From positions 1 through 46,428 of the forward strand of contig JBPOGI010000009.1 in the NCBI GenBank assembly GCA_051251855.1: a stretch of 46,428 nt of DNA. The letters run 5' to 3'. Below the pieces are notes generated by a model. It saw only the letters and a program-made list of their open reading frames with translations, searched no databases and had not been told where the DNA came from. Below are positions 9,485 through 12,873 of this stretch, in pieces. Source of the DNA: Roseibacillus sp. GTDB taxonomy: Bacteria > Verrucomicrobiota > Verrucomicrobiia > Verrucomicrobiales > Akkermansiaceae. A program made the position numbers and the translations under genes. Position 1 is the first letter of the stretch; each line of letters opens with the position of its first letter.

Positions 9485-10984
9485 TCAACGAAAGACCGGC
9501 GGACCATTTCCCGTCACCAAGAACTTGAGAACACTCATCTCCTGAACTCGTTCGCCTTTGACGAACACGCCATCAATCGACACCTCACTAATATGGTTCT
9601 TACCAGTGATCGATTGGAGTTGAGAACGAGATTTCAAATCTTGGAGATGGAGATTCTTAAATCTTACTCGCTGAATTCTCCCCCGCTGTGCCATGAGCTC
9701 CTTCTGTTCCTCAGAATTTAGCTGCTCAAGCGAAAGCCATTTCCCATATCGCATCGGAAATTCACGGCTTTTCCCTCGCTTAAAGCGCTTGGGCAAATCC
9801 CAGCTATATCGGGAAATCCCCACTTGCAGCTCGATCAGTTGCTCTCGGACATCTTCAAAGCGGAGATTCTTAAAAAGAATGTCCGAGACCACCGCCCGTC
9901 CCCCATTGTGGATACTCATCGCAGCCCCTTTCTCCACTCGGATGATGTCGTTGTCATGGAAATGAATCTGCCCAGTTTCTTGACTCCGTAGCTCAAAGCC
10001 AATTTCCAGCGCATTCCCCCACACCGTATTCCAAAAGACAGAGCGGGTAATTTCAATATCTTTGGTCGGCCACTCGTTCTCAGAATCATCGACGTAGCCT
10101 TTTACGGCAATGTTATCGTCCTTGGTATGGAAAAAGCACTGATCCACCAAGACCTCACGGGAGTTACAAATATCGAGTCCGTCGTCATTATCGCGATTCG
10201 AAAACACCTTTACATTCCTGATCCGCACATCCCGACATTTCACGGGTACAATAGTCCAGCCATAACTCCCAATGATCCCCACTCCATCGATGGACACCCT
10301 TTGGCACTCTTCAAAGCTCAGAAATCGACGCTTCTCCTCTCCGTCTTGCCGATGAGAGGAATCAAAAAAACCTGATCCCGTGATCGAGATATCAGACACG
10401 CCTTCAGCCCTCACCACTCCTCGGACGATCGCTCCCGGCTCGAGAAAAATTTGTTCCCCATCTGCCAGATGAATCTCTCCCGCATCATGAATTTTTCCAG
10501 AAGTAAATACGCGCGCTGAGGGCGACTTCACTCTCGCTCTCACCTCTATCGGATCATCAACAAAAAGGAGAATAGGATGACGGATATCCCCATCGAACTC
10601 AACACTCAATGAACCCGTCGTCGGAAGTTGAAATTTCACCACATTTCCCTGCAACCTTGCCTCAATCCCCCTCGCCAGTGGACGGACGACGACGCTCTTG
10701 GGTGACCGCTCCAACTCAATGGTCACCCAACTCCCGGGAGAGGCGGCAAACATGGAAAAATCCCCGTAGTCTGTCGTGAGTATGGCCAGCTCGGTCTCAT
10801 CAACTTTCAGCTGGCGACCTTCCGCTCGTGGAAACTCAGGAGCGAAAGGATAAGCCAGCACCTTCGCGCTTGAATGAGAGAACACACAAAGCCAGCACAG
10901 AAGTGCAATAGGAAGTCGAACCATGACCCATCTGGACGAACTATAATGAGCGACTCTTTCATGTAGAGTAAACTTTCGAAGCAC
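9485..10984 (-). CDS. Glycoside hydrolase family 28 / pectin-lyase-like beta-helix protein, exported
   Basis: FLEPGAIVRG, NDDGLDICNS, HTKDDNIAVK and NALEIG motifs. A signal-like segment follows MVRLP, so the true start may be near 10924. Confidence 0.8.
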   Translation of the reverse strand: MLRKFTLHERVAHYSSSRWVMVRLPIALLCWLCVFSHSSAKVLAYPFAPEFPRAEGRQLKVDETELAILTTDYGDFSMFAASPGSWVTIELERSPKSVVVRPLARGIEARLQGNVVKFQLPTTGSLSVEFDGDIRHPILLFVDDPIEVRARVKSPSARVFTSGKIHDAGEIHLADGEQIFLEPGAIVRGVVRAEGVSDISITGSGFFDSSHRQDGEEKRRFLSFEECQRVSIDGVGIIGSYGWTIVPVKCRDVRIRNVKVFSNRDNDDGLDICNSREVLVDQCFFHTKDDNIAVKGYVDDSENEWPTKDIEITRSVFWNTVWGNALEIGFELRSQETGQIHFHDNDIIRVEKGAAMSIHNGGRAVVSDILFKNLRFEDVREQLIELQVGISRYSWDLPKRFKRGKSREFPMRYGKWLSLEQLNSEEQKELMAQRGRIQRVRFKNLHLQDLKSRSQLQSITGKNHISEVSIDGVFVKGERVQEMSVLKFLVTGNGPPVFR

Positions 10985-11217
10985 AGGAACCCTTCACCTC
11001 TTTCAGCCGAAGACAGTAAAAGCAGTCCCCGAAGAACTCTTGGTTTGAATCATCAAATCGATTTCAGAATCTTCTAGAGGAACATCGCAAAGTCCTCCGA
11101 CCTCCTTCCAAATTCGAGAACACCAGAGCTCTCCAAGAGAATCTCACTTTTCGAGTATAGCTTCCGACACAGCATAAGGAGCGTCGAAGAATCCTCTATT
11201 CGTAAGGTTCTGAGAAT

Positions 11218-11277
11218 TGGTAGCACTGGGCAGATTTGAACTGCCGACCAACCCCGACGAGTCGGGGCTGCTCTACC
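11218..11277 (-). pseudogene. Partial tRNA copy (D-loop to CCA) with the anticodon arm replaced by the hairpin CCCCGACTCGTCGGGG
   Basis: 11218-11251 is identical (34 bp) to 11525-11558, and 11268-11277 is identical (10 bp) to 11574-11583. The 15 nt between them in the tRNA are replaced by a 16-nt inverted repeat. The 5' acceptor strand is missing. Confidence 0.9.
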
Positions 11278-11515
11278 CTTCGAGACACGTGATTGCCTTG
11301 CCTGGATTTTTCCAAGACTTCAGCTTCTTCTCCACGGCGAACGCTTCAACCTTGGTCGAAAACTCTTTGGTCACGACTACTTCCAGCGGTAAGCCCAATC
11401 GTTTCGTCGAGTGAACACCCCCACTTTGATGCTTCTTGAGGCGTTGCTCAAAGTTTTCCGTCGCTCCAATATAGTAGCGACCGGACTGCCCCTTCAAAAT
11501 GTAAACAACAGCCAT
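11273..11515 (-). CDS. Stand-alone GIY-YIG nuclease (80 aa, YhbQ/UPF0213/Slx1-like)
   Basis: [16 protein letters not shown] (GIY...YIG), RLKKH (conserved Arg/His), STKR and [10 protein letters not shown] (metal-binding Glu). Confidence 0.92.
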
Positions 11516-11524
11516 TTAAAAAGA

Positions 11525-11599
<75 letters not shown>

Positions 11600-11619
11600 A
11601 TTTACCCGTAGGGGCAGGC

Positions 11620-11648
11620 GGAATACTTGATATCGGCGCATCTGTCTA
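11620..11648 (-). promoter_or_regulatory. Putative sigma70 promoter of the tRNA
   Basis: TAGACA-17 bp-TATTCC, 20 nt upstream of the tRNA 5' end. Confidence 0.5.
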
Positions 11649-11727
11649 TGGAAAAAGCACCCTTTTCGAGTCTGCCGGAAATAACACTCGCCAGCTTGCT
11701 CTTGAATGTCCAAGGTCCGCCTTCGCG

Positions 11728-12873
11728 ATGCGCAAAAAAGCTCTTTTGGCACTTGAAGACGGGCGGACTTTCCAAGGAACCGCCTTTGGACACGATGGGA
11801 CAACCACCGGCGAGGTTTGCTTTAATACCTCCATGACCGGTTATCAGGAAATTTTGACCGATCCCTCCTACCGAGGACAAATCGTGACGATGACCTACCC
11901 TCAAATCGGAAACTACGGCGTCAATCCCGAGGATGCAGAATCTGACCAAGTTCAAGTTCGCGGCTTCGTTGTTGGCGAGCTCTGCGACATCCCTTCCAGC
12001 TGGCGCTCTACTCAAAGTCTCAGCGACTATCTTTCGGAACATAAGGTTCTCGGAATCGACGACATCGACACCCGTGCCCTGACTAAGCATCTTCGCTCAG
12101 CGGGCGCCATGCGCTCTTGTCTGACCTCCGAACTTTCCGAAGACGAGGCCGTCAAAGCCGCGCAAGAATCCGACTCCATGCTTGGAGCTGACTTCGTAAA
12201 AGAAGTCACCACTGCCAAGCCCTATCACTGGGAAGGCGAGTCTCGCCCTTGGACCATCCCCTCCGTTTCTCAAGGCATCGAGGGCAACTACCTTCCCCTT
12301 GCTGAAGCCAAATACAAGATCGTCGCCTACGACTTTGGCATCAAACGCAACATCCTGCGCCGTCTCCGCCAAGAAGGCTTCGACGTCACCGTCGTTCCTG
12401 CCACAACCTCCGCCAAAGAGGTCCTCGCCATGAATCCCGAAGGCGTCTTCCTCTCCAACGGCCCCGGCGACCCCGCTTCTCTCGACTACGTCCATGCCGA
12501 AGTGCGCGAACTGATTGGCCGCACCCCTCTCTTCGGAATCTGCCTCGGTCACCAACTCCTCACTCACGCCTGTGGCGGAAAGACCTACAAACTCAAGTTC
12601 GGTCACCGTGGCGGCAACCAGCCCGTGCAAGATTTGCGCACCGGCAAAGTCGAAATCACGGCCCAGAACCACGGCTTTGCTACCGATGGCGAAAATCTCC
12701 CCGCAGACACCGAGGTCACTCACATCAACCTGAATGACCGCACTGTAGAAGGCACTCGCTCGACCAAAGACCCCGTCTTCTCCGTTCAGCATCACCCCGA
12801 AGCCGCTCCTGGCCCCAACGACTCCAAAGAATTCTTCGTCGATTTCGCGAAGATGATCGAATCCGTTCGTTAA
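11728..12873 (+). CDS. carA: Carbamoyl-phosphate synthase small subunit
   Basis: [37 protein letters not shown] and HPEAAPGP. Confidence 0.98.

Follow-up and report, generated by a model that had tools for sequence, protein, structure and literature searches.

A GIY-YIG nuclease gene and a conserved DNA hairpin form a 307-bp unit nested in bacterial tRNA genes

The window, a 46,428-nt stretch of Roseibacillus sp. (contig JBPOGI010000009.1) to which unprefixed coordinates refer, carries on its minus strand an intact tRNA gene with a CAT anticodon and an encoded CCA end (11525–11599), the sole Rfam match in the region. We take this gene to be elongator tRNA-Met from its identity elements (G2:C71, C3:G70, A73); the Ile2-type and initiator-type CAT genes of the genome are separate and both lie on contig C1. 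The tRNA is followed on the same strand by a T-rich spacer of 9 nt that runs from the CCA to an ATG (11516–11524), by the 80-codon ORF P0001 (11273–11515), by a D-arm piece of 10 nt identical to the tRNA, GGTAGAGCAG (11268–11277), by a hairpin CCCCGAC-TC-GTCGGGG (11267–11252) and, finally, by a tRNA 3′ half of 34 nt covering tRNA positions 43–76 (11218–11251, repeat family D2). P0001 encodes an 80-residue single-domain GIY-YIG nuclease with a UPF0213/Slx1-like fold (PF01541, E 2e-15), and its TAG stop codon (11275–11273) lies inside GGTAGAGCAG. The 3′ half is identical to 11525–11558, and the resulting 34-nt direct repeat bounds a unit of 307 bp (11218–11524), with carA upstream and a GH28 gene downstream. 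Between the repeats, the only ORF of at least 70 aa is the GIY-YIG gene, and an integrase gene is absent. No Shine-Dalgarno sequence is visible in the spacer ahead of the nuclease ATG, which suggests that the gene rides on the tRNA transcript; a scan of the locus found no terminator-like site and a single weak promoter-like match, within the ORF. Thus, as read from the sequence, the nuclease gene is likely expressed as part of the tRNA transcript.

The preliminary description had claimed that the anticodon arm of the tRNA copy is exactly replaced by a hairpin, and this proved correct: the flanks of 10 nt and 34 nt are identical to the tRNA (11599–11525), and a 16-nt hairpin stands between tRNA positions 27 and 43 in place of the 15-nt interior of the native arm (positions 28–42; 11559–11573, minus strand), which is missing from the copy. 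The hairpin (11252–11267, general form CCCCGAC-NN-GTCGGGG) reads CCCCGACGAGTCGGGG on the plus strand and CCCCGACTCGTCGGGG on the minus strand, with 7-bp arms around 2 nt. It folds with a 4-nt loop (DNA z-score −4.55 for a 31-nt stretch), and none of 200 shuffles folded as well. The strict hairpin motif was found 7 times in the genome against 0.1 expected and, because the swap also recurs at the same junction elsewhere, the hairpin is not a product of chance. The preliminary description had remarked that the hairpin still contains GACTC. That hairpin and native arm share it is a coincidence, since the same hairpin is found in Lys and Arg copies whose native arm lacks GACTC: GAC belongs to the conserved stem and TC is one of many loops.

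Behind the orthologous tRNA of a same-genus genome (G169), which matches the window at 88% identity over the carA-leader-tRNA region, the site is empty, as it is behind the same tRNA in G388. These two genomes make up the empty-site comparison; regions from G401–G404 and G166 were without the tRNA motif searched. Contigs from eight sequencing runs contained no joint skipping the unit, and no RNA run was listed as containing it. A 337-nt contig that spans the unit does not speak for a circle: it is the expected assembler product of a 34-nt repeat, and its depth is that of the flanks. In a related strain (run X6), 9 of 337 positions differ. Of the changes within the ORF, three are synonymous and two alter codon 2 from Ala to Ser, a hint that P0001 is under purifying selection; the hairpin is unchanged, which is uninformative at 2.7% divergence.

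Other tRNA-derived sequences occur in the genome. Ten divergent tRNA genes form an array at G000 C10 114076–115599. Ordinary partial copies of the initiator Met, Cys, Ser and Thr tRNAs lie at C1 949299, C1 1309086, C6 84346 and C6 215193, 7–62 kb from their genes, and are typical island ends. Two 19-nt 3′ ends, each preceded by unrelated GC-rich sequence, are possibly relics of another unit: one of tRNA-Pro (G000 C8 386616–386634), ~100 nt past the tRNA-Pro gene, and one of tRNA-Ser (C6 84552–84570), ~200 nt past an island-end Ser copy.

P0001 consists of one GIY-YIG domain, with PF01541 as its only match, and its structure model is a single 80-residue domain with a mean pLDDT of 95. Residues Y5, Y15, G17, R25, H29 and E62 are invariant in an alignment with 30 relatives, and all of these but G17 are of catalytic type. 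By sequence, the best solved relatives are the UPF0213 proteins 1zg2 (E 3e-12) and 1ywl (E 2e-9), and a Foldseek search with the model returned 1zg2 at the top, followed by HIGLE and Slx1. The best named protein relative comes from an uncultured Verrucomicrobiae genome, and searches of NCBIfam and PHROGs gave no family above cut-off.

Does the swap occur elsewhere? We searched blindly with the P0001 protein alone, making no use of the hairpin, and obtained 11 other loci at ≥52% identity. The hairpin was present at the same junction in 9 of them; of the remaining two, one contig ends inside the gene and one carries a frameshifted gene without a hairpin. A further search, with a profile built partly from hairpin-found proteins, covered 401 genomes of this class and matched 94, of which the best 30 loci were used. 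The protein-found set comprised 38 loci, the window included, in genomes that are kin and not independent. A CCCCGA..TCGGGG hairpin sits in a partial tRNA copy at 35 of the 38. An intact tRNA lies upstream in 30, and in 28 of these 30 a copy has positions 28–42 replaced (27 downstream, 1 upstream only); the swap is not confined to this locus. The remaining two are accounted for by a contig that breaks off early and by a hairpin that a later insertion has split, and in 7 of the other 8 loci the hairpin and the 3′ half stand directly behind the gene. A pattern scan of metagenomes gave 84 loci, with a GIY-YIG match within the available stretch in 64. Viral contigs were searched as well and the unit was not found there: 0 of 19 pattern hits lay in a tRNA context and 0 of 13 protein hits lay beside a tRNA.

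Several features of the arrangement are fixed. The junctions lie at tRNA positions 27|28 and 42|43, and of 30 related ORFs that have a hairpin nearby, 25 end in a stop codon 5 nt ahead of it. The target varies: Met, Ile2, Lys(CTT), Lys(TTT), Arg(CCT) and Arg(TCT) tRNAs are used, as is Asn(GTT), there without a gene in view, and the 27:43 pair and the flanks track the local tRNA (G-T, A-T or G-C) with a few exceptions (L009, L011, L205). The 68 downstream copies retain medians of 7.5 nt of 5′ and 33 nt of 3′ sequence, and in 49 of them the 3′ half is complete; in the 17 upstream copies the medians are 12 and 8 nt, and the T arm and the 3′ end are lacking. Tandem units with the gene occur at four loci (L008, L109, L196, L206), with a hairpin at every junction.

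Variant arrangements were also seen. At L204 (G775) and L210 (G828), arrays of 5–6 gene-less units, each made of a tRNA-Met 5′ half, hairpin and spacer and repeating with periods of mostly 94 and 78 nt, lie upstream of the intact tRNA. The order is mirrored at L126/L145 and L130, where a 5′ half with hairpin precedes the GIY-YIG gene and an intact tRNA-Lys. At L208 (G763:C15), foreign DNA interrupts the loop region of the hairpin that follows the first gene, and the second half of this hairpin comes ~200 nt further on, ahead of a second gene.

We compared the stems of 24 distinct hairpins, selected for a stem of at least 4 bp. Pairs 1–5 are identical in all of them and pair 6 is A-T in 23. Further in, pair 7 is C-G in 16 and A-T in 7, and pair 9 is C-G in 3 and T-A in 2. 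The outer 6-bp stem (CCCCGA..TCGGGG) is thus near-invariant, and the inner pairs covary; loops vary freely and have no consensus. This stem sequence is constant across the nuclease clade, whose members range down to ~36% identity with the window protein. An invariant stem sequence argues for a protein that reads it, since mere immunity or decay would not maintain it. In our reading, the hairpin forms the conserved DNA end of a unit of 307 bp, a small GIY-YIG gene with a partial tRNA copy, found repeatedly in tRNA genes.

In a protein tree, all hairpin-bearing rows fall in one clade of 93 rows (support 95), and the hairpin is found in none of 21 more distant GIY-YIG rows; the tree was made by a quick method on 82 columns, and 41 of its 111 inner branches are unresolved. 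The window protein nests among Ile2 units, which suggests that the unit switched its tRNA target. More distant small GIY-YIG genes lie beside other palindromes, which stand ahead of partial tRNA 3′ copies or inside long reading frames (L017, L022, L028 and L033, with tRNA-Pro and tRNA-Val; L019, L021, L023–L027, L029 and L031).

The hairpin is also dispersed outside tRNA genes. Five gene-carrying genomes contain 44, 20, 7, 5 and 2 dispersed copies (reversed-pattern controls: 0, 1, 1, 1 and 0), versus 5, 0, 2, 1 and 1 in five same-genus genomes without the clade gene (controls: 2, 0, 3, 4 and 0). The copies are oriented: a G lies just 5′ of the hairpin (a C just 3′ on the other strand) in 59 of 65 and is missing in 6 against 33.5 expected, although many of the 65 belong to the same repeat subfamilies and the insertions in REP-like repeats may descend from few events. 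Such insertions, consisting of the hairpin and exactly four bases, were found in 10 of ~53 REP-like repeats of this genome. In the main REP-like family, 5 of 37 copies have the hairpin and GAAC after GTGGGG and 32 lack them; related REP subtypes contribute five more insertions with tails GAAC, GATC, GAAG or TAAC. The insertions at G000 C1 320467, C6 518914, C9 149002, C10 145074 and C12 34979 and at five more sites occupy one position in the repeat. At six other loci, extra hairpins, again each with four bases, lie in the D loop or T arm of tRNA copies, and at L007 the four added bases are GAAC, as in the REP-like repeats. Of 120 further genomes of the family, just 3 yielded the hairpin joined to GAAC. 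A second palindromic family has 8 copies (G000 C1 1768014, C6 141094, C6 473945, C8 294693, C9 348501, C10 144363, C10 327130 and C11 292549), all ending in a CCGAC-NNN-GTCGG-like core, and no copy without the core was found.

The variants of the dispersed hairpin partly follow those of the gene-linked one. Five genomes with an A-T-type gene-linked hairpin contain 25, 10, 4, 5 and 34 A-T-type copies and 0, 0, 0, 0 and 1 copies of the short C-G type. In family f73, genomes with a long C-G-type gene-linked hairpin contain 9, 1, 1 and 32 copies of that type and also 12, 14, 1 and 77 A-T-type copies, so the matching of hairpin variants is not one to one. The densest case seen is a 3-Mb genome of this family (G700), with 77 A-T-type and 32 long C-G-type hairpins. 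Strict hairpins, 2–4 per genome, also occur in five genomes that lack a clade gene, and just 1–2 strict or loose copies were counted in four genomes that carry one. Across 301 genomes, a bare hairpin was matched in 38, versus 24 for the reversed control, so that a single bare hairpin is at chance level and is not diagnostic without its context. None of 30 loci taken from this search belonged to a tRNA copy or had a clade gene close by, and many of these matches look like terminators or chance.

Of the roles offered in the preliminary description, that of a cis signal of the element itself is supported by an invariant stem across the clade, flanks that follow the tRNA and dispersed copies enriched in gene-carrying genomes. 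It had asked whether hairpins sit in anticodon-arm positions beside GIY-YIG genes; they do at the protein-found loci, and copies are also dispersed elsewhere. The match that it looked for between hairpin and nuclease clade holds for the clade, to which the hairpin is confined among the tree rows, and is not one to one for individual variants. As to the concern that the hairpin might be an abundant, unrelated genomic repeat, it is indeed a dispersed repeat, evidently a related one.

How might hairpin and nuclease work together? We consider it probable that the hairpin is the site recognized in single-stranded DNA by the unit's own nuclease and that a nick, followed by repair on a tRNA gene, copies the unit. 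The nuclease would be made from the tRNA transcript, its ATG lying 9 nt past the CCA. The protein would bind the extruded hairpin and nick the DNA within a few bases of its foot, in the manner of SsnA at its NTS, and the four extra bases beside inserted bare hairpins may be the trace of this nick. The nicked end would then be repaired by pairing with a tRNA gene through the flanks that the two have in common, while hairpin and anticodon stem-loop bulge out from opposite strands, an arrangement that would put the swap at the foot of the anticodon stem. Such repair would duplicate one tRNA half, so that a working essential gene survives; it would also account for tandem arrays, for spread to alleles that are still empty and for an occasional jump to a tRNA whose flanks are alike. 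At other stem-loops, the reaction would give rise to the bare hairpins seen in REP-like repeats and in D and T loops. The four-base tails suggest a cut at a set distance; however, four bases are found on either side of the G-marked end, and one fixed cut site cannot explain all cases.

This mechanism is modeled on the Ssn nucleases. SsnA binding needs the stem sequence and a C after the palindrome, and the enzyme cuts a few bases upstream (PMC11893778, section 8); its authors raise a mobile-element origin and, in the sections cited here, show cutting and not movement (Chenal et al. 2025, PMC11893778). The likeness to the NTS-SRM pairs described there is close: in both, a single-domain GIY-YIG gene of <100 residues abuts a GC-rich, oriented hairpin that is dispersed in the genome, and in both a C adjoins the palindrome on one strand (PMC11893778). 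Ssn proteins are defined as single-domain GIY-YIG proteins of <150 residues with intact Tyr, Tyr and Glu, which describes P0001 (80 aa; Y5, Y15, E62), with an oriented hairpin repeat that adjoins the gene and has dispersed copies in carrier genomes, as found here, and with a blastp E <1e-10 to SsnA. On this last point the two part: with six NTS-adjacent GIY-YIG proteins as a proxy for SsnA, P0001 shares 30–35% identity at E 0.008–0.32 (database size 1e9 letters), short of that threshold. The degenerate SRM motif had 0 matches in 10901–11900 of the window and coincided with the hairpin at 0 of 120 loci. P0001 thus belongs by proxy to another protein clade and has no C-terminal tail, and its unit sits in tRNA duplications, where it replaces positions 28–42; the main text of the Ssn paper makes no mention of tRNA (PMC11893778). 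The unit appears to work like an Ssn/NTS pair but is not classed as Ssn. Because P0001 falls outside the Ssn clade in the proxy test, the behavior of SsnA serves as an analogy; binding, cutting and mobility of the unit are inferred.

Judged by the features tested, the unit can be classed neither with integrase islands nor with RAYT/IS200 elements or SegB-type enzymes. In integrase-driven tRNA islands, a duplicated tRNA 3′ half bounds the insert and the intact tRNA is preserved, much as a 34-nt tRNA 3′ direct repeat bounds the P0001 unit; but the unit is only 307 bp long and has no integrase, a foreign hairpin replaces the anticodon arm, and mirror-image 5′-half duplicates occur. Compared with REP/RAYT and IS200/IS605 systems, the unit has no HUH/Y1 transposase, and the linked protein is a GIY-YIG enzyme, whose domain is not known to form a covalent DNA link. 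The likeness is that a subterminal hairpin in single-stranded DNA serves as the handle of a small enzyme and that non-autonomous copies are dispersed (PMC11893778, section 12). Unlike in REP/RAYT systems, the hairpin inserts into REP-like repeats and is not the REP itself. SegB-type homing endonucleases carry an extra DNA-binding domain behind the catalytic domain, which is absent from P0001, modeled as one 80-residue domain. SegB, a free-standing GIY-YIG homing endonuclease of phages T4 and T6 with preferred inheritance and segmental amplification (PMC13096335; PMC2330249), resembles the unit in that a GIY-YIG gene lies among tRNA genes; it differs as a phage enzyme that cuts double-stranded DNA, and the account in PMC13096335 contains no hairpin-substituted tRNA copy as far as its cited parts go. 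P0001's best sequence and fold matches are the stand-alone prokaryotic Slx1-like/UPF0213 GIY-YIG proteins (PDB 1zg2, 1ywl). Dunin-Horkawicz et al. (2006) describe a stand-alone Slx1-like domain recently inserted into an HsdR gene, and the passages of PMC1564403 used here name no hairpin, tRNA target or mobility mechanism for this group. A literature search, with subscription journals largely outside its coverage, turned up no account of hairpin-substituted tRNA copies associated with GIY-YIG genes.

Alternatively, the nuclease could be a homing endonuclease that cuts the native anticodon arm, the hairpin merely immunizing the copy, with double-strand-break repair via the 3′-half repeat spreading and amplifying the unit. 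All seven target tRNA types have an anticodon that ends in T and is followed by AA, the tandem units are what repair of a break in an intact arm would be expected to give, and SegB drives segmental amplification among phage tRNA genes (PMC13096335). If the anticodon arm were the cut site, however, the carrier would keep it intact in 28 of 30 loci, where the intact tRNA stays beside the gene, and the tRNA exposed in the window is the only elongator-type Met gene outside the tRNA array of this genome. The same unprotected neighbor fits poorly with the suggestion in the preliminary description that the hairpin shields the copy from cleavage. Immunity, moreover, needs no invariant sequence and leaves the dispersed copies and the D- and T-loop insertions unexplained. 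The T36 rule is itself weak, as 7 of the 9 tRNA genes of the genome with a matching D arm have T36 anyway; a preference for anticodons with a final T could not be told apart from similarity of the D arm. Homing is thus an unlikely account of the unit.

Even less probable, in our judgment, is that another mover, a RAYT/HUH transposase or host repair, shifts the hairpin and that the GIY-YIG gene is a passenger between the tRNA halves. The genome contains three ORFs, on other contigs than the unit, that are RAYT-like by motif, and bare copies lie inside REP-like repeats; hairpins persist in some gene-less genomes, and A-T-type copies abound where the gene-linked hairpin is of another type. Against this, the gene retains its catalytic-type residues and is followed, in 35 of 38 protein-found loci, by a hairpin at a fixed place overlapping the stop region. 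More distant GIY-YIG clades have other hairpins alongside, and 32 of 37 copies of the main REP family do without the hairpin.

A role in RNA is improbable on several counts. The copy might yield an anticodon-less tRNA mimic or decoy, as the preliminary description had proposed, or the hairpin might stabilize the nuclease mRNA at its 3′ end. In favor, the copy would share a transcript with the tRNA, and in the window it ends in an encoded CCA; a G27-U43 pair lengthens the stem on the transcribed strand, and an RNA fold allows pairing between the D-arm piece of this locus and the 3′ end. Yet this pairing buries the CC of the CCA, and the mimic fits poorly with copies that lack the 5′ acceptor strand, the downstream ones retaining a median of 7.5 nt of 5′ sequence. 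No acceptor stem is rebuilt: in 102 copies, the 25 nt upstream can form with the acceptor strand a longest helix of 4.4 bp on average, versus 4.3 bp in controls, and a helix of at least 7 bp occurs in 6 of 102 versus 2.5% of controls. Nor does an RNA role fit loops without consensus, upstream copies without T arm and 3′ end, or dispersed copies without any tRNA sequence. Finally, local decay, in which a spare tRNA copy from ordinary integration had its arm made palindromic by a template-switch mutation, could appeal to the GACTC of the native arm and to the ordinary partial copies at four island ends, but is already refuted, as the preliminary description had argued from the exact flanks and new stem, by recurrence of the same stem at the same junction in many families, including Lys and Arg copies with unrelated native arms, and the four island-end copies lack the hairpin and have a native anticodon arm where they reach it.

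Returning to nicking at the hairpin, a stronger form of this proposal is conceivable, which we put forward tentatively and do not expect to hold in full: the 80-residue GIY-YIG nuclease would be the sole element-encoded mobility factor of an autonomous element of ~300 bp, among the smallest. It would cut single-stranded DNA four bases from its own hairpin, and host repair would paste the hairpin-bearing ends into other stem-loops. The base-exact exchange of hairpin for anticodon arm would allow life in essential tRNA genes, isotype switching, arrays and dispersed palindromic repeats, and no integrase, DDE or HUH transposase would be needed.

The nuclease-plus-hairpin pair nested in tRNA genes is a real and conserved feature. 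The locus offers a clean test pair, in which an 80-residue protein meets a 16-nt site with natural stem variants and a candidate four-base cut distance. Recognition of the hairpin by P0001 would mean that hairpin-directed GIY-YIG nucleases are found outside the Ssn clade too, in the Slx1/UPF0213-like group, which is given no substrate in the cited passages of PMC1564403, and, if true, would define a new family of sequence-specific single-strand nucleases that could serve as a tool resource. The unit is a testable candidate for the spread of short palindromic repeats in bacteria without a matching HUH transposase.
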